Shown here in pieces: positions 1,617 to 41,500 of a stretch of DNA of 64,000 nucleotides; positions within the stretch are counted from its first letter, which is position 1; every line of letters begins with the position of its first letter. Source of the stretch: Promethearchaeota archaeon (lineage in GTDB: Archaea; Asgardarchaeota; Lokiarchaeia; Sigyniarchaeales; SOKP01). Location of the stretch: positions 96,001 to 160,000 of the forward strand of contig JAEOUA010000003.1 in NCBI GenBank assembly GCA_016839555.1, written 5' to 3'. The position numbers and the translations under genes are program-made. The notes below the pieces were generated by a model. It was not told where the DNA came from and did not search any database. It saw only the letters and a list, made by a program, of their open reading frames with translations.

Positions 1617-3173
1617 TTAAAATTTTTCTTTTGGTAAATACATCAACGAATTAATTAAATCTGTGATACACTGAGCCGTCGGACCTAATTTAATCATATC
1701 AATTTTATCCAATGTGTCTTCTGCTGTAAGTAAATAGTATGGTGATCGGATTAAATGAATCACTTTCAAACCGCCCATAACTGCGAAGTGACCAGCTTCA
1801 CCTATCGGTGGTGTTGCAAAAAAATTGTCTGGTATTAATAGCATTCGTTCCATATCATGCTCTTTAAAAGCTTTCAGTGTATGGGCAACTAATGTTTCGT
1901 TTTGCGAGATAAAAGTAGCACCAATAGCAAGATTGTCTGTTATTTTGAAATCATGAGTTATGGGATCTTCATCTACCTCTTTCGCACATAAATGTTCCAG
2001 ATTCACATCAATCAAAACATTATTCAGTAAACTATTTTTATATTTATGAGCAAAATGTTCAGCACCTATTCCACCATAAAGATGGCCCGCAGTTAAGATA
2101 AATAATAAGGATCGTGGTCGCTTCTCTAAGGGTGTATTCGCCCAAGCCCCTAATTGGGCTAAAACCATTGACACTCCAGTTCCATCTTCTGAAGCTCCTT
2201 GAAAGGCAGCATCGTGGTGACTTGAAATCATTATCATTTCATTAGACTGACCAGGCAAGATTCCTATTATATTATGAGCTATAGAGGGTTCTTTATTTCC
2301 TTCTAGGATCATAGTAGCTTTAGCAGTTTCTGAAATGGCGATTTCTCGTAGTTCTATTCCGTCATATTTTCCTACATATAAAGCAGGCACTGGTTTCATT
2401 GATCCATCATACGGTCCCCAGTGTGTATTAACATTTGAAGGATAATCTCTTAGAATTAGGATTAAACCAACCGCTCCATTATTAACAGCTCGCCAATACA
2501 CAGAATCTTTTATAGGGGGGCCTCCTAATGCTTGAGGGGGGAAATTTAATAGGGCAAAAGTTAATATTATGCTTGTTTCTTTATCTATTGAATTTTTGGG
2601 ATCGGACACATAATAAGGAGGTGCTAATTTTAAAATTTTTCCTATTGGAAACTCCGGAAATTCAATATCAGCTACAACAATCTTACCTTTCACGTCTTTT
2701 TTTTTAAAATCTCTTTTTTCCCCGGTTCTTACATACACTAAAGGGGCACTAATTCCTTCAGAATTAGTAAATTCTGTATTCAAAACATAAAAACAAGGAA
2801 TTTCAATTTGTCCTTTTTCTGTTGAAATAGTTAATTTCCAATTATTTGCCTGCCAATTAATTAAATTAATAGGATCCTTTTTAATATCTTTTAATCCTAA
2901 TTCCTTAAATCGACTAATGAGATAATCTTCAATCTCGTGAGCTTCATTTGTACCGACTCTTCTATGAGGGACACTACATATTTTTTTTAAATCTTCAATA
3001 ATAGTCTTTGAACCTGGTGCTAAAACTAAATTCTCAGGAGATTTTATTTCTGATAATAAATTTTCCGCTTTTTTTCGAAATTTTTTCATTTTTGGACGTA
3101 ATTTTAATAAATTTAAAATAAATTTTTTCCTTGAAAAGCGGAACTCTGTTAACTCTTTATTATTATTCGGCAT
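1617..3173 (-). CDS. M28 family metallopeptidase with PA domain
   Basis: PHRRVGT, PA-domain segment DVKGKIVV, SSHHD, GASEDGTG and NLEH metal-ligand-like motifs. Confidence 0.8.
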   Translation of the reverse strand: MPNNNKELTEFRFSRKKFILNLLKLRPKMKKFRKKAENLLSEIKSPENLVLAPGSKTIIEDLKKICSVPHRRVGTNEAHEIEDYLISRFKELGLKDIKKDPINLINWQANNWKLTISTEKGQIEIPCFYVLNTEFTNSEGISAPLVYVRTGEKRDFKKKDVKGKIVVADIEFPEFPIGKILKLAPPYYVSDPKNSIDKETSIILTFALLNFPPQALGGPPIKDSVYWRAVNNGAVGLILILRDYPSNVNTHWGPYDGSMKPVPALYVGKYDGIELREIAISETAKATMILEGNKEPSIAHNIIGILPGQSNEMIMISSHHDAAFQGASEDGTGVSMVLAQLGAWANTPLEKRPRSLLFILTAGHLYGGIGAEHFAHKYKNSLLNNVLIDVNLEHLCAKEVDEDPITHDFKITDNLAIGATFISQNETLVAHTLKAFKEHDMERMLLIPDNFFATPPIGEAGHFAVMGGLKVIHLIRSPYYLLTAEDTLDKIDMIKLGPTAQCITDLINSLMYLPKEKF

Positions 3174-3349
3174 TTCTAAAATTAAATATAATTTTAATTT
3201 ATAATATCAGTTTTAAACTTAAATATCTATTTACTCATTTAAGATGATTAAATTAATATTCAAATTTCCGCTAAGAACTTAGAACTATTGCTTACTTAAA
3301 ATAATCTATGTTAAAATATTTAAGCAATCATTTCCTATTTTTTATTACT

Positions 3350-3406
3350 ATGAATATTAAAATAATTCCACTAGAAATTATTTTGATTATTATTGGGATT
3401 ATTTAA
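3350..3406 (+). CDS. putative Ile-rich leader peptide (MNIKIIPLEIILIIIGII) upstream of cimA
   Basis: ATG at 3350 and TAA at 3404-3406; 10 of 18 codons are Ile. A TATA-like TATTTAAG lies about 26-33 nt upstream. The downstream gene starts the citramalate route to Ile. Confidence 0.65.
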   Translation: MNIKIIPLEIILIIIGII

Positions 3407-3408
3407 TT

Positions 3409-3491
3409 TCATAAAAGAAATTTTAAACTCTTTTTATGATTTACATTTCTTTTATCATCAAATAATCGTTTAAAATTTCTTTTTTTTATGA
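3409..3491 (+). promoter_or_regulatory. putative attenuator: alternative hairpins and T8 tract in the cimA leader
   Basis: Perfect 16-bp inverted repeat AAAAGAAATTTTAAAC (3413-3428) / GTTTAAAATTTCTTTT (3468-3483), extendable by TCAT/ATGA. T8 run at 3480-3487. An alternative partner TCTTTTTATGA lies at 3429-3439. Confidence 0.55.
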
Positions 3492-3522
3492 GATAAAAAA
3501 TAACTAATATATGTGAGATGCA

Positions 3523-5121
3523 ATGGAAAATAAATATGTTTATATTTATGATTCGACGCTCCGGGAGGGTTCCCAAAAAACGGGTATAACCTTCTCAATG
3601 AAGGATAAATTGCGGATTTTGAAAAGGTTAGTCAGGGATCTCGAAATACCAATGATTGAAGCTGGATGGCCAGGATCTAACCCTAAAGATATTGAATTAT
3701 ATAAAAACATTAATGAAATGGATTTAAAAACTACGAAAATATTTCCTTTTAGTAGTACACGGAGAAAAAATCAAAATGTGGAAAATGATAGGAATATAAA
3801 AGCCTTATTAGAAACTGGTGCAAATCAAGCCACCATTTTTGGAAAGAGTTGGGATTTACATGTTGAGCATGCCCTTGAAACATCATTAAAAGAAAACCTC
3901 AATATGATAAAAGATAGCATCTCATTTTTGGTTAAAAATAATATGGAAGTAATGTTCGATGCTGAACACTTTTTTGATGGATTTAAAAATAATAATGAAT
4001 ATGCATTAAAAACTATCTTGCAAGCAAAAGAGGCTGGTGCATCTTGGATAGTATTATGCGATACCAATGGAGGCCTATTACCCAGTGAATTAGCTCCAAT
4101 ATTAGAAGAAGTAAAACATAATTTAGGAGACCATTCTTTGGGTATCCATGCTCATAATGATTGTGGTGTAGCTAATGCTATAGCCTTGGAAGCCTGGCAG
4201 CACGGTGTAAAACTTATCCAAGGAACTATTAATGGATTTGGAGAGCGCTGTGGAAATACAGATCTCACAACAATTATTCCCATCTTCAAGTTAAAGTATG
4301 GAATTGATTTTATTGATGATAAGAAGTTGAAAAACTTGACCGAAATATCCCATTATGTATATGAACTTGCTAACTTATCTGCTGATTATGATCAACCGTT
4401 TGTTGGGAAAAACGCTTTTTCTCATAAAGGAGGAGTTCATATCTCTGCCATGTTAAAAGATATAAACACATATGAGCATATAGACCCTGAGGCTGTGGGG
4501 AATACTCGAAATATAAAAGTCTCAGAATTAGCGGGTAAAAGTTCTATTCTCCATATGGCTAAAAAATTTGAACTTCCTTTAACTGAAGATAATCCTAAAG
4601 TAGGGGCAATTCTTAATTTTGTGAAAGAAAAAGAGAATCAAGGGTATTCATTTGAGGGAGCAGAAGGGTCCTTAGAGATTATCATGCGGGGGATTGATAT
4701 GAATATCGAAGATCCTGATTATTATCGAAAAAAATTTTTTGAACTTGAAGGGTTTAGAGTTCTTACGGAGCTATATAAAAATAATCTTATCTCAGAAGCG
4801 ACCATAAAAGTAAAAGTAAAAGGACAAGAATATCATACTGCTGCTGAGGGTGTGGGACCCGTGAATGCGCTTGATAATGCACTCAAAAAAGCCTTAGTGT
4901 ATTTCTACCCAAGTATTAAAGAAATAGAGTTAAGCGACTTCAAGGTGAGAATTATAAACCAAGCAGGGACAGCAAGTATGGTCCGCGTCTTAGCAGAAAC
5001 TCATGATAGTAAAGATTCCTGGGGTACAATTGGGGCTCATGAAAATATCATACTTGCATCGTGGAATGCTTTAGTAGATTCATATATCTATAAATTATTA
5101 AAGAATAAGGAAAATTGGTAA
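3523..5121 (+). CDS. cimA: citramalate synthase (DRE-TIM, LeuA/CimA family)
   Basis: DSTLREG, IFGKSWDLHV, DAEHFFDG, HAHND and GERCGN motifs, plus C-terminal regulatory domain (GVGPVNALD). The GKSWDLHV/DAEHFFDG signature matches bacterial-type CimA. Confidence 0.85.
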   Translation: MENKYVYIYDSTLREGSQKTGITFSMKDKLRILKRLVRDLEIPMIEAGWPGSNPKDIELYKNINEMDLKTTKIFPFSSTRRKNQNVENDRNIKALLETGANQATIFGKSWDLHVEHALETSLKENLNMIKDSISFLVKNNMEVMFDAEHFFDGFKNNNEYALKTILQAKEAGASWIVLCDTNGGLLPSELAPILEEVKHNLGDHSLGIHAHNDCGVANAIALEAWQHGVKLIQGTINGFGERCGNTDLTTIIPIFKLKYGIDFIDDKKLKNLTEISHYVYELANLSADYDQPFVGKNAFSHKGGVHISAMLKDINTYEHIDPEAVGNTRNIKVSELAGKSSILHMAKKFELPLTEDNPKVGAILNFVKEKENQGYSFEGAEGSLEIIMRGIDMNIEDPDYYRKKFFELEGFRVLTELYKNNLISEATIKVKVKGQEYHTAAEGVGPVNALDNALKKALVYFYPSIKEIELSDFKVRIINQAGTASMVRVLAETHDSKDSWGTIGAHENIILASWNALVDSYIYKLLKNKENW

Positions 5122-7520: not shown

Positions 7521-9446
7521 ATGAAGCTTATAAATTCAATTGATTTTTTACAACAAAAAAAAATAATCTCTAAATTAATTACTGATTTCTCCAAAAATCA
7601 AGATATAAATTATAATATTACAGAAATTCAAGAACTAGTTAATAAAATTATTAAAACCTTCAGGAAAAATAGGCTTAAATCTAAAGATTTTGAATCTGAC
7701 TTAGAAAATGTTTACATTAAAGAGATATCATATAAGCAAAGAAAATTATTAGGAGAGATATATACTCCAAAAAAAATTGTATCTTATATTCTTCAAAAAA
7801 TAAGATATAATTCATATTCCGATTTACAAAATAAAAGATTAATTGATTTGAGCTGTGGTTCTGGAAGCTTCTTAGAAGCGGCTTGTGAAATACTTATAGA
7901 TTTTTATAAAAAAAAATTTGAAAAAACTAATTTAAAAGATTTTTCACCACAACAAGCTAAGATAGTAATTAATCAAGTAAAAAACAATATTTTTGGTATT
8001 GATGTTAATCCAATCACTTGTATTCTATGTCAAATTAATCTACATTTAAAATTGGTTGATCTATATATAGTTTTATTTGAAAATACAACTAACTTTAAAG
8101 CACCAAGCTTCAAAATTATATGCCAAAATGCTTATCGCTTAAATAAATTAATTAGTGTTTTTGAATTGAATTCGTTTGATTTCGTGGTTGGAAACCCCCC
8201 TTATATATTTATAAGAGATCTTCCTGAAAAGCATAAAAATATTATCGATTCTGAAGACTTCAAGACAAAAATGGGGCAATATGATTCATATCAATTATTT
8301 ATAGAACTCGGAATTGAATTTTTGCAACAAAATGGTTTTCTGGGCTATATAATTCCAGACTCTATCTTAGCATTATCCAATAGAAGAATTATTAGAAAAT
8401 ACATTTATAATTCTACGAAAATAAAAGAGCTATGTATTGTAAATTCTCAGTTCAAAAATAGTATAGTCTCAAATATAATTTTAATATTGAAAAAAGAAAA
8501 GAACAAGAGAAAGAGAAAAAATAATATTATAAATGTAATGGATATTGCTGATAAAGCTAATTTGATTAATAAATTTCCTCAAAAATTAATTAAAAAATGG
8601 AACTACAAATTTCTTATCAATTTAAATTCAATTGATATTAAAATATTAGAATATTTAAATCAAAATTTTTCAAAATTAAAAGATTTAATGGAAGATGAAC
8701 GGTTTAAGATCCTACTAAATAGAGGAGTGGAATTAACTAAAGAAGGAAAGGTTTTCTTTTGCTCAAAATGTGAAAAATATTATCCCATACCTAAAAGAGA
8801 GAAAAAATGTCAGAAATGTGGAGAAAAATTCATTAAAGAGAACGTCGAAATTATTATATATGATAATTTACCCCCAAATAATCAAGCGGAATATAAATTA
8901 TATCTTTATTCTTTAAACAGATACAAAATAGATGAGTATAAATATATTAATATAAATAAGAAGGGAATTGATTACAAGGATCTCAATTATTTTCACGATC
9001 GAATTATAATTCGGCAAATGAATCAAAATAATCGAATTTGTGCTAGTTATTATGAGAGTCTGTTAATGTGTTCTCAAAGTTATTATAATCTAAAAGTAGA
9101 ATTTTTTTCTATTCCAGAATTTAACAATTTATATTTGCTTGGATTAATAAATTCGCTCCTTCTTTCTTATTTTTTCATTAAGTCTTTTGGTTCTTATAAA
9201 CAGCTTTTTCCAAGAATATTGATTGAAAATATACGAAATCTACCTATCAAAGTTCCTCATACAGATAAAGAAAAAAAAATTGCAAAGAAAATAATAAAAC
9301 TTGTTAAAATTTTGTTGAATCTAAAAAATTCAAATGCTGAATTATTTTATAAGGAACAGAATCAAATAGATTCTTTAGTGTTCGAATTATACCAACTTCC
9401 TTCATTAGATATAAAATACATTAGGGATTTTATGACTAATTTGTGA
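7521..9446 (+). CDS. N6-adenine DNA methyltransferase (gamma class, TaqI/Eco57I-like) with C-terminal target recognition domain
   Basis: GEIYTP, DLSCGSGSF (motif I) and GNPPY (motif IV); C-terminal LLGLINS...LPIK; internal CxxC...CxxC insert. Confidence 0.85.
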   Translation: MKLINSIDFLQQKKIISKLITDFSKNQDINYNITEIQELVNKIIKTFRKNRLKSKDFESDLENVYIKEISYKQRKLLGEIYTPKKIVSYILQKIRYNSYSDLQNKRLIDLSCGSGSFLEAACEILIDFYKKKFEKTNLKDFSPQQAKIVINQVKNNIFGIDVNPITCILCQINLHLKLVDLYIVLFENTTNFKAPSFKIICQNAYRLNKLISVFELNSFDFVVGNPPYIFIRDLPEKHKNIIDSEDFKTKMGQYDSYQLFIELGIEFLQQNGFLGYIIPDSILALSNRRIIRKYIYNSTKIKELCIVNSQFKNSIVSNIILILKKEKNKRKRKNNIINVMDIADKANLINKFPQKLIKKWNYKFLINLNSIDIKILEYLNQNFSKLKDLMEDERFKILLNRGVELTKEGKVFFCSKCEKYYPIPKREKKCQKCGEKFIKENVEIIIYDNLPPNNQAEYKLYLYSLNRYKIDEYKYININKKGIDYKDLNYFHDRIIIRQMNQNNRICASYYESLLMCSQSYYNLKVEFFSIPEFNNLYLLGLINSLLLSYFFIKSFGSYKQLFPRILIENIRNLPIKVPHTDKEKKIAKKIIKLVKILLNLKNSNAELFYKEQNQIDSLVFELYQLPSLDIKYIRDFMTNL

Positions 9447-38537: not shown

Positions 38538-41500
38538 ATGGAATTAAATTTTAGAAAAGTCTTATGTATAAATCTTATAGGGAAAGAGGGTTGTAAATAT
38601 AAAGTTATTGATAAAATCGATAGAGGGGGAGGGGGAAATGTTTTTGTATGTGTTGATGATGATGAAAACCAATTTGCTGTAAAAATTTTTTCTCGTTTAG
38701 GTAGAGATGATACTGAAAGATCAAGAAAGCGTTTCATAAATACCTATTCTTTTCTTTATCAATTAAAACATGAAAATGTCATCCCAGTTATTGATTATGA
38801 GAAATGTAAATATGATGGGAATTCTCTTCCTTTCTACATCATGCTTATAGCAAGAGAAAATCTTAAGGATTATTTTAAGAGAAATGAAATAAAAGAAAAA
38901 ACTTACGAAGTTGAACGCATTTTAAATCAAATTCTTGATGGGCTTATTTATTTACATAATGAAGGCTATGTGCATAGAGATATTAAGCCTAAAAACATAT
39001 TAGTCTTTCCTGATAATAAAATTAAAATTGCTGATTTGGATATAGGACATATTCCAGATAAGTATAAAAAAGAATCAATTGAGACACTTCCAGAGGATTA
39101 TTCTCAAAAGGGTTTCTATAAAACGATAGAAGAAAGAGCTTCGGATGATCCTAGAGCAGACATTTTTGCTTTAGGAAAGGTTATAATGCATTTATTAACG
39201 GGTGGAAAACAAGAAGCTGGGATAATAATTAGTCAAGTAAATCACTCCTTTAGTCGGAGATTTGATAATATTATAGCAAAGATGACCAAGGATAATATTG
39301 ACGAACGTTATCCCTCCCTAATTGAAGTTAAAAAAGCGCTATTGCTATATTTTAATACGGCAGAAACAAAATTACGAAATTCTCTTGATGATGAAATTTA
39401 TCGTAAGTTTTTCGACCTAGATCAAAATTTAGCTGAGGAATTTGATTCTGCTGTTAGTCTATTAAAGCAAGAGAATCTTTCTAGGAGATTTTCTCAATCA
39501 GCTAACTCTTTTCAATATATATGCAAAATTTTACAAAAACATCTTGATAGATGGTATTCTGAAGCATTATTTATCCCTAAGCGATCCCGAGAATTAAAGG
39601 AACAATTATTAAATGAATTGAATAATATATGTCAATTTTTTACAATAATAGCGGATCATGAGAAGGATACAAATAAACCAGAATTTGAAGGTAAGATTGA
39701 AGAATTTGAGAAAATAGTAAAAAAGTTATTAAAATCCAATATAAATGTTATTAATGCCTTAGATAATCTCTTGGAGAAAAAGAACCCCGTTTTAGATGAT
39801 GTGGACGAATTAATTAGTTTATTAAGCAATCCATCTCATTCACAATATTTTTTCACAAGGCTAAAATCTCCGAAATGGTTGGATTTATTAATTGAAAAGG
39901 AATTTTTTAGTAATCCGCCTGAGCATGAAATTGAGCAGCCATTAATGATACATATTTGGCCTCAAATTAATTACTTAATAAATATATCCTCTATCCGGCC
40001 GCAAAAAGTTCTTTCAATATTGAATGATATAAGTCCTATTGTGCATTTTTCAATAAATAGATCAATTCTTTTATGCATTAACAACATGCCGGTTGAAATC
40101 TCTAAACAAGCACTCCCCTTGATTAAAAAATTAAGTTCTAATTTTTCAATAGCAGAATCTATTTATCTTAAAAAATTAGTGAAAGCATTTATTTTTGAAA
40201 AAGAGATTGAATCTGTTTATAGCATCTTAGAGATTATCTTGATAAAAGAAGGAAAAAGGCAAAAAAAAGAATTCTTATTATCAGACGATGTTTATTATTT
40301 AATATTAGATTATCAAGATATTTTCGATCAATTGATTATTATTGATAAGAATACAAAAGAGCTCCGAGTCTTGAGGCTTTTATGTAAAATTTTATCATTT
40401 AATTTATATCTAAATTCAAATAATGATTCTGATAAAGTTAAAGATTATTCTGAAATATGGAGAACCAGTATTAAATCTGAAAGTGATATTTATGAGACAA
40501 AAGATACAAAAAATCTATTAGTTAATAAGATTCGAGATTATTTTTCTGAGATTGATTCTACTAACCACCAACTCATTAAGGAAGGATTTAAGATATTGGA
40601 AAAATATGAATTGACCATTTTTAAGAGGATTAGATTATTCATAATAAATGCATTTCCAAATATATTTTCTGAGGAATTACTTAAATATCTATGTAATGAA
40701 AATTTCTTTTTTGATGATAAGCTATGGAGCGAATATTATACTTTACTAAAGAATCATTTCCCAAAACTTTCTGAAAATCAAAAACAATTGATTTTTGAGT
40801 GGATTAAAAAAGGACCTAAAATTCAATTTATAGAAAAAGACTTTGATACAACACAAAAATATGAAAAATTTAAATCAGAAGTTATTTCCGCGTGGTTAAG
40901 AAGAAGAATGGAACCTATTCATCGTTATTTAAAACCAGAATTAAGAGAAAAATATGAGAATCTAATTAAGAAATTTGGAAAAATTGAAGAGCCACAATTT
41001 TATAACAAAATGGAGCATCCTCGATTCTTTTCAGGTTCACCATTGAAAGATTCCGAACTTAAGAGTTTAAAAATATCCGAGTTAATTTCCTATTTACAGA
41101 AATGGCAACCAAACGAGAAGGATTTCTTGGCTTCTAAAAGTGGTCTCGGTGTAGCTTTATATAGATTAATTTCTGAAAATACTGAAAAATTTGAAATTTT
41201 ATTGGACTATTTAGATGAGATTCCATTTTATTATTTTTCACATATAATCAGAGGATTTTCATCATCATTGAAAAAAAATAAGCCTTTGCAAATAGCCAAA
41301 AAAGTGGATAAAATTATTCAAACATTTAGAAAATATGAAAATGATTATACCTTAAAGCAATATTACGAAGTATCTAAAGCAATATTTAACTTTGTACAAG
41401 AAGCTTTAAACATAGAAAATATAAAATTATCTAATGAGATTATTAACCAAGTGCGGAATTTTATTTTAGATATGTTAACTCTTGACAAGTTTGAGTCTAA

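Follow-up and report, generated by a model that had tools for sequence, protein, structure and literature searches.

Can an archaeon use a translating ribosome to gauge the supply of an amino acid, and adjust the expression of a biosynthetic gene to it? Leader-peptide attenuation is the textbook proof of transcription-translation coupling in bacteria and of the ribosome as a sensor of metabolites. The question is raised by a 349-bp interval of 19% GC in the genome of a Promethearchaeota archaeon from the class Lokiarchaeia (assembly GCA_016839555.1), which lies in a stretch of 64,000 nucleotides (nt) from contig JAEOUA010000003.1, positions 96,001 to 160,000. This whole stretch is referred to here as the window, and its numbering is used unless stated otherwise. 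The interval separates a divergent gene (1617-3173, minus strand), for which no family match was found, from the gene at 3523-5121 on the plus strand, which encodes citramalate synthase, CimA (TIGR00977 equivalog, 665.9 bits against a cut-off of 450, with full-length coverage). It contains an 18-codon upstream open reading frame (uORF) that runs from an ATG at 3350 to a TAA at 3404-3406 and reads directly as MNIKIIPLEIILIIIGII; 10 of its 18 sense codons specify isoleucine (Ile), nine as ATT and one as ATA. A preliminary description of the locus had proposed that this is a leader peptide whose cognate codons report the supply of Ile to cimA. That proposal is strongly supported by conservation in 27 leaders, by maintenance of the reading frame, by linkage to cimA, and by sister leaders for leucine (Leu) and tryptophan (Trp). 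Positions 3313-3522 are probably the mRNA leader of cimA, in which a ribosome translating the uORF would act as an isoleucine gauge and control the gene.

An isoleucine-rich reading frame upstream of cimA

One explanation of the uORF is that it arose by chance within AT-rich DNA. The genome (3.74 Mb in 12 contigs, in an assembly that is 92% complete) has a GC content of 29.6% overall and 21% in its intergenic regions, where ATT accounts for 6.4% of trinucleotides, a frequency that favours an accidental origin. Against this stands a census of all ATG-initiated open reading frames (ORFs) of 8-40 codons, on both strands, in DNA outside ORFs of at least 100 amino acids. Among these 6350 short intergenic ORFs, the cimA uORF is the most Ile-rich, and no other reaches 55% Ile. 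Nor does any other have 10 or more Ile codons, or 7 or more ATT codons, within 20 codons or fewer. The concern, raised in the preliminary description, that equally Ile-rich short ORFs might be common in the intergenic DNA of this genome is answered by this census, in which none equals it. A second Ile-rich ORF, at 6752-6805 of contig C7, was judged coincidental; it lies antisense within an 82-amino-acid ORF and has no Ile-related gene downstream. A chance origin is contradicted by the census and by the conservation, frame tests, and linkage to cimA that are described below; it was rejected, and we assign it a vanishingly small probability.

A CimA ortholog (E < 1e-100) is encoded in 42 of the 161 genomes of the class, and the 450 nt upstream of every ortholog were read. 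All loci of family f1 with enough upstream sequence carry an Ile-rich ORF of 17-24 codons, 8-14 of them for Ile, which ends 95-133 nt before cimA. Alignment of 27 distinct f1 leaders, from nine genera (g1, g2, g3, g4, g5, g6, g9, g10, and g11) with CimA proteins that are 70-84% identical, shows the uORF at the same position in every one. The conservation of the uORF that the preliminary description had named as a check is present in f1, and the Leu and Trp uORFs are conserved in relatives as well. A covariance model (R1), built from the end of the uORF through the downstream helix B (99 positions, 13 pairs), gave one match per genome in 27 of the 135 family genomes; all of them have cimA, and each match lies directly upstream of that gene. 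None of the approximately 105 family genomes that lack cimA gave an R1 match. Two cimA genomes that fell below the strict filters for R1 (G009 and G014) nonetheless show the leader in the alignment. A scan of metagenomes with an 18-nt pattern returned at least five true leaders among the matches listed, all close to known ones, with the rest being mostly unrelated AT-rich DNA.

The peptides encoded in f1 share a pattern of Met, two to four polar residues, Ile-Ile-Pro, a variable Ile-rich middle, Ile-Ile-Gly-Ile-Ile, and a stop codon. The Pro codon lies 12, 15, 18, or 21 nt after the ATG, and the Gly codon follows it at one of seven distances (24, 27, 30, 33, 36, 39, and 45 nt), every one of which is a multiple of three; a single seeming exception is an artefact of locating CC within ATC-CCG. 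No stop codon occurs in frame in the variable middle, against 31 in one and 18 in the other of the remaining frames, and Ile accounts for 152 of its 270 codons (56%; 112 ATT, 16 ATC, and 24 ATA), compared with only 4% ATH triplets out of frame. The third position of the Pro codon is free to vary, with all four bases occurring across the leaders. Residues that have equally A/T-rich codons or are equally hydrophobic are scarce in the variable middle, at 5% for Leu, 4% for valine (Val), and 2% for phenylalanine (Phe), and because none of them exceeds 5% the bias is for Ile itself and not for hydrophobicity or base composition.

Four genomes of a second family, f2, have a different Ile-rich uORF upstream of cimA, which cannot be aligned with that of f1 and ends in Ile-Ile-Cys. 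A GGAG Shine-Dalgarno sequence lies before this uORF, and a covarying helix of its own lies behind it. No such Ile-rich ORF was found upstream of cimA in the G+C-richer families f3 and f4, or in some genera of f2.

The spacing between TATA boxes and transcription start sites in archaea follows an established rule. In f1, a TATA-like block (3313-3323 in the window, columns 10-22 of the alignment) lies approximately 30 nt upstream of the ATG and is conserved in 27 of 27 leaders, with an invariant T15 and A18. Since this block is conserved at such a distance and the uORF is without a Shine-Dalgarno sequence, the uORF is likely to be leaderless or to have a very short 5′ untranslated region; the leader transcript would begin only a few bases upstream of the ATG at 3350 and would continue into cimA. 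An additional in-frame ATG at 3308, which would give a 32-codon ORF, is located upstream of the TATA-like block and is not kept in relatives. Conservation of the f1 leaders ends approximately 35-45 nt upstream of the Shine-Dalgarno sequence of cimA. This sequence (3513-3519 in the window, assigned by its motif) is GGTGA, GGAGG, or GTGAG in the orthologs, and sits 6-10 nt upstream of an ATG or TTG start codon. Approximately half of the orthologous genes start with TTG, after GGTGA or GGAGG; cimA in the window starts with ATG after GTGAG. Here cimA, the presumed regulated gene, is monocistronic, with the following genes on the opposite strand.

Two conserved helices in the leader

The pairing of the leader RNA is conserved as well. 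Positions 3340-3530 are predicted to fold into a hairpin behind the uORF, helix B, and a second hairpin within the uORF (-32 kcal/mol, z = -2.9 against dinucleotide shuffles), and averaging of base-pair probabilities over the 27 leaders brings out two helices, A and B. The 5′ strand of helix B (3413-3428) consists of a purine tract, AAAAGA at 3413-3418, and a core at 3419-3428. Its loop (3429-3467) is U-rich, with T5 at 3431-3435 and T4 at 3450-3453, and is a candidate zone for pausing or termination. The 3′ strand (3468-3491) comprises the core at 3468-3477, UCU at 3478-3480, and then T8 at 3480-3487 and AUGA. In the window, 3413-3428 pairs with 3468-3483 through 16 perfect base pairs, a 4-nt bulge follows at 3484-3487, and TCAT at 3409-3412 pairs with ATGA at 3488-3491. 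Across the leaders, the 10-bp core together with AGA:UCU is 93.9% paired, falling to 67% and 48% when the strands are slid. The core has 10 U-G wobble cells in the alignment and three double changes, with covariation above that of nearly all shuffles, and the substitutions in its 3′ arm are all A-to-G, which keeps pairing solely in the plus-strand RNA. This core is conserved in all leaders; T8 and the 4 outer bp are found only here and in a few relatives. Between the stop codon of the uORF and the start of helix B are 7-15 nt, which places the helix where the front of a terminating ribosome would be; the purine tract lies inside the footprint that such a ribosome would have, and the core just outside it.

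The elements listed in the preliminary description (the uORF and its 10 Ile codons, the inverted repeat 3409-3428/3468-3491, the T8 tract at 3480-3487, and cimA downstream) are all confirmed in the sequence, and the core of its hairpin is conserved. The switch that it built upon them fares less well. In that scheme the hairpin is an anti-terminator that hides the T8 tract, and a ribosome that reaches the stop codon masks the left arm, so that the tract is freed and transcription terminates. The geometry fits in this genome, where the purine tract and UCAU (3409-3418) lie in the footprint of the terminating ribosome and pair with the U tracts and AUGA around T8; a hidden U tract could also matter, as aCPSF1 must bind U-tract RNA (PMC8716108). 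Yet a run of at least five T follows the hairpin in only six of the 27 leaders, namely those of this genome (T8), of G005 (T6), and of four genomes in genus g5 (T5), and the outer stem is not conserved. The 10-bp core, which is outside the footprint, is predicted to stay paired with a probability of approximately 0.85 when the ribosome is at the stop codon, as it does when the ribosome is absent or stalled early, midway, or late in the uORF. The predicted accessibility of the U4 tracts is likewise unchanged, at 0.54-0.56 across the 27 orthologs in all ribosome states. Furthermore, in intrinsic termination the U tract occupies the RNA-DNA hybrid and cannot be sequestered. With T8 not conserved, and the hairpin predicted to form wherever the ribosome stands, the switch as first drawn is unlikely.

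The preliminary description also missed helix A, which is conserved and encloses the whole uORF. In its 5′ strand (3350-3369), AUGAA at 3350-3354, that is, the start codon and two further bases, and the Ile-Ile-Pro codons at 3361-3369 pair with a 3′ strand (3395-3412) made up of the Gly-Ile-Ile codons, the stop codon, and UUCAU at 3408-3412. The mean pair probability of helix A over the 27 sequences is 0.4-0.8, and 87.8% of cells are paired in register, compared with 31-52% when slid. The nucleotides of its codons hardly vary, in contrast to the Ile codons in the middle of the uORF, which differ among ATT, ATC, and ATA; this difference points to a second constraint acting on the RNA. As helix A encloses the uORF, no ribosome can be in the uORF while the helix is closed.

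Conservation of this kind, beyond what pairing needs and on both strands of both helices, could suggest that the leader is instead a structured RNA bound by a protein or a ligand, in the manner of a riboswitch or an operator, and that the frame is a by-product of AUU-rich helices. Such an origin is difficult to reconcile with a frame that is kept through seven length classes, with the retention of both ATG and stop codon, or with the freedom of the Pro codon at its third position. A Shine-Dalgarno sequence precedes the uORF in the f2 leaders, and the leader matches no family in Rfam, for which the best hit was snoR22 (23 bits against a gathering score of 50, E = 1.2). We regard such an RNA element as highly improbable.

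Two further pairings were considered and rejected. An antiterminator of the 2:3 type, in which the 5′ arm of helix B would pair with the region around the stop codon, would have only approximately six A/U-rich pairs, and the predicted minimum free energy (MFE) structure has in its place a tiny GGRAUU/AAUUYC hairpin (-1.4 to -2.4 kcal/mol). A hairpin between the purine tract and a U tract (AAAAGA with UCUUUU) is 77.6% paired but equally so when slid, has a mean z of -0.8, and appears in the MFE structure of approximately half of the orthologs. Exact 13-mers of the helix B arm sequences occur at three further places, and pairs with two mismatches are common throughout the genome, so that their recurrence as a dispersed repeat is uninformative.

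Sister leaders for leucine and tryptophan

Is the cimA leader a solitary case? Upstream of the long ORFs of the same genome, every uORF within 320 nt was scanned for enrichment in a single amino acid. A uORF of 34 codons (L062:1752-1856 (-), contig C12) has 15 Leu codons, uses six different codons for this residue, and ends in five of them; its stop codon is 101 nt upstream of leuA, the gene for 2-isopropylmalate synthase (NF002085, 572 bits; L062:31-1650 (-)). Leu-run uORFs precede leuA in approximately 20 loci of families f1 and f2, and the long-range helix of the leuA leader begins approximately 6 nt past the stop codon. Compensatory changes can be seen by eye in the alignments of the leuA leaders and the f2 cimA leaders; RNAalifold called no consensus structure on the leuA leader set. 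A third uORF, of 20 codons (L063:1582-1644 (-), contig C5), includes four Trp codons in a W-x-W-x-W arrangement and stops 133 nt upstream of a gene for a TrpB-like pyridoxal phosphate enzyme (NF009057, 640 bits; L063:45-1448 (-)). It is followed by a T9 run and conserved hairpins. Similar W-x-W-x-W uORFs are found upstream of the trpB-like gene in approximately 14 f1 loci, and weaker forms of them occur in other families. In both the Leu and the Trp leaders a long-range helix begins at or just past the stop codon, and the architecture is thus shared with the cimA leader: a uORF with cognate codons up to its end, a long-range helix, a spacer, a Shine-Dalgarno sequence, and the gene. Within this genome, leaders for Ile, Val, or Leu were not found upstream of four acetolactate-synthase-like genes, two class-I tRNA-synthetase-like genes, and two other CimA/LeuA paralogs.

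These parallels bear on the suggestion that the uORF and hairpin form a separate small gene, whose product would be a hydrophobic micropeptide or a small RNA ending at a terminator of its own; cimA would have a promoter just downstream of, or inside, the 3′ arm of helix B and would be affected at most indirectly. In most leaders, TTTAAAA in the 3′ arm (3468-3480 in the window) is followed by TATA-like A/T-rich DNA 51-62 nt from the cimA start, and the peptide is hydrophobic enough for a membrane micropeptide. A membrane helix, however, would exchange Ile for Leu, Val, and Phe, and the variable middle holds 56% Ile with hardly any of these three residues, even though TTA and TTT are just as AT-rich. 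Moreover, the element occurs solely alongside cimA, and non-homologous Ile, Leu, and Trp versions precede matching genes. The helix in the equivalent position of the f2 and leuA leaders contains G+C and covaries, which identifies it as RNA and not as a TATA box, and the A-to-G substitutions in the 3′ arm of helix B keep U-G pairs. A separate gene is therefore very unlikely. The TTTAAAA of the 3′ arm could nevertheless double as the TATA box of a second, cimA-proximal promoter.

Two other observations were made in the same genome. The strongest single-residue enrichment in the scan (p ~7e-14) belongs to a GC-rich, repetitive uORF of 21 codons, 12 of them for glycine, on contig C10, which ends 36 nt before a gene for a MinD/ParA-like ATPase with a ferredoxin-like insert (40093-41028 (-), L068) and has no apparent cognate logic. 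No isoleucyl-tRNA synthetase scored above the TIGR00392 cut-off (the best was 167 bits, for an 876-amino-acid frame), and the gene may be missing from the 92%-complete assembly.

A proposed route from ribosome position to expression of cimA

How might the position of a ribosome on the uORF reach cimA? In the mechanism that we propose, transcription would start a few bases upstream of the ATG at 3350, and the first ribosome would translate the 18-codon frame, over half of which is Ile codons. If charged tRNA-Ile is scarce, this ribosome would linger in the uORF, and if Ile is plentiful it would reach the stop codon and depart. Helix A would close only when the uORF is empty. An occupied uORF would thus hold helix A open and RNA polymerase would pass the cluster of U4 tracts; in an empty or untranslated uORF, helix A would close beside an all-A/U stretch and premature 3′-end formation, either intrinsic or dependent on aCPSF1 (also known as FttA), would be favoured. 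Expression of cimA would then occur chiefly under Ile shortage. When the run in the core of helix B is excluded, 25 of the 27 leaders have one or more runs of at least four T at +16 to +60 past the stop codon, mostly at +24 to +50. Given that conservation ends 35-45 nt before the Shine-Dalgarno sequence of cimA, and that the accessibility of that sequence is insensitive to the ribosome, the decision would be taken before RNA polymerase leaves helix B, which suggests control at the level of transcription. Among the possible output mechanisms, read-through with helix A held open, and 3′ ends in the U-rich zone once an empty uORF lets it close, is a tentative choice to which we give less than an even chance.

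Several results weigh against this account of the leader. Helix A shows no compensatory changes in the 27 leaders, and in equilibrium predictions helices A and B are not mutually exclusive. No position of the ribosome alters helix B, the exposure of the U tracts, or the cimA ribosome-binding site in these predictions, so that the link from stalling to output is without computational support; the ribosome masks were evaluated by equilibrium folding, with which kinetic switching is compatible. The region has no bacterial-type terminator (0 sites), no individual run of at least five T is kept across the leaders, and the A-rich, TATA-like DNA past helix B could form, with the TTTAAAA core of the 3′ arm, a separate promoter for cimA. 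In one genome (G008, L005 ~1322-1495), the stop codon of the uORF has been lost, with CAA replacing TAA, and the frame continues for 57 codons through helix B to end 5 nt before the ATG of cimA. In G024 the stop codon is AAA, and the frame closes three codons later, abutting helix B. Both are natural variants that could inform the mechanism. Archaeal RNA polymerase is not known to require hairpins, or to respond to them, in terminating. Archaeal termination uses U tracts without hairpins, and a test for a G+C-rich intrinsic terminator may not apply to this leader. Binding of U4 tracts by aCPSF1, with an affinity that rises with the number of tracts, has been reported, and a Lokiarchaeota ortholog behaves alike (PMC8716108). 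FttA receives RNA straight from the exit channel, and it has been hypothesised that FttA and the ribosome compete sterically (PMC11616081).

Control might alternatively be exerted on translation, as with the mycobacterial poly-Cys frames or ermC, with a stalled ribosome exposing the ribosome-binding site of cimA while transcription is unchanged. The uORF appears to be leaderless, as in the mycobacterial case (10.1101/834739), and cimA has its own Shine-Dalgarno sequence, often combined with a weak TTG start. However, no complement to the Shine-Dalgarno and start region is conserved, and the preceding 35-45 nt are not conserved either. The predicted accessibility of this region is 0.42-0.47 at each of the four ribosome positions tested in 24 orthologs, and no sequestered ribosome-binding site that stalling would open was seen in these predictions. 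Unmasking of the cimA ribosome-binding site and unmasking of the U tracts were both rejected as outputs, having no predicted effect. We consider translational attenuation improbable.

The enterobacterial transcription attenuators ilvL (of ilvGMEDA), ivbL, leuL, trpL, and hisL are close parallels. The Lokiarchaeial leaders resemble them in having a pathway-cognate uORF upstream of a biosynthetic gene, conserved helices that overlap it, and parallel leaders within one genome, and the expected logic, in which a hungry ribosome raises expression, is the same. In contrast, the present leaders are found in Archaea and have no G+C-rich terminator hairpin with a U tail; no terminator-like site (0) lies before cimA. 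Mutually exclusive terminator and antiterminator helices are not seen, as helices A and B coexist in predicted ensembles, and a 1:2/2:3/3:4 competition is not demonstrable. The sensing codons reach the stop codon, the uORF is probably leaderless, and the helices are unrelated to the leader families of Rfam. In E. coli pyrBI, UTP is sensed through pausing of RNA polymerase, the hairpin is a canonical intrinsic terminator, and the leader ORF runs through that hairpin. A translating ribosome would there block the hairpin that its ORF traverses, and the same is proposed here for helix A, although pyrBI senses no amino acid.

The nearest mechanistic analogue that we found is in mycobacteria, where leaderless poly-Cys short ORFs at several loci respond together through ribosome pausing, an arrangement termed a ribulon (Canestrari et al., bioRxiv 10.1101/834739). 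In both systems a run of cognate codons lies in a putative or known sensory uORF, which is leaderless in mycobacteria and probably so here. The mycobacterial uORFs unmask a downstream ribosome-binding site, whereas pairing to the ribosome-binding site of cimA is neither conserved nor predicted. The uORF in the leader of Corynebacterium ilvBNC (PMC10272879, PMC11857589) was likewise found by comparative genomics as an RNA motif, with conserved branched-chain codons before an ilv gene, but it is bacterial and is described by a three-hairpin terminator/antiterminator model. Archaeal termination at U tracts by aCPSF1 (FttA) (PMC8716108, PMC11616081) has its counterpart in the cluster of U4 tracts within 60 nt past the uORF; it has been described at the ends of genes, and regulated, ribosome-dependent use in leaders was not found in the literature searched. 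Full-text searches on leader peptides, attenuation, or uORFs in archaea and in Asgard archaea gave no archaeal case; everything returned was either bacterial or used the terms in an unrelated sense.

With modest confidence, we favour the view that Lokiarchaeia, within the Asgard archaea, possess a set of ribosome-read leaders (Ile-cimA, Leu-leuA, Trp-trpB-like, and probably more) that couple tRNA charging to gene expression. Their output would combine an enclosing helix controlled by occupancy of the uORF with the formation of 3′ ends, by RNA polymerase and aCPSF1/FttA, where U4 tracts cluster. If this is true, they would represent the first leader-peptide attenuation in Archaea, and one that is mechanistically distinct from the bacterial hairpin-terminator design. 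It becomes testable whether archaea regulate by coupling, and how they would do so with a eukaryote-like RNA polymerase and a CPSF73-type termination factor. The shared architecture also provides a rule for annotation: where no regulator is known, amino-acid regulons can be recognised by a short uORF rich in cognate codons with a long-range helix behind it.

Elsewhere in the window, a 641-amino-acid protein encoded at 7521-9446 on the plus strand has weak matches, far below the cut-offs, to the defence adenine methyltransferases MAD2 and BREX PglX.

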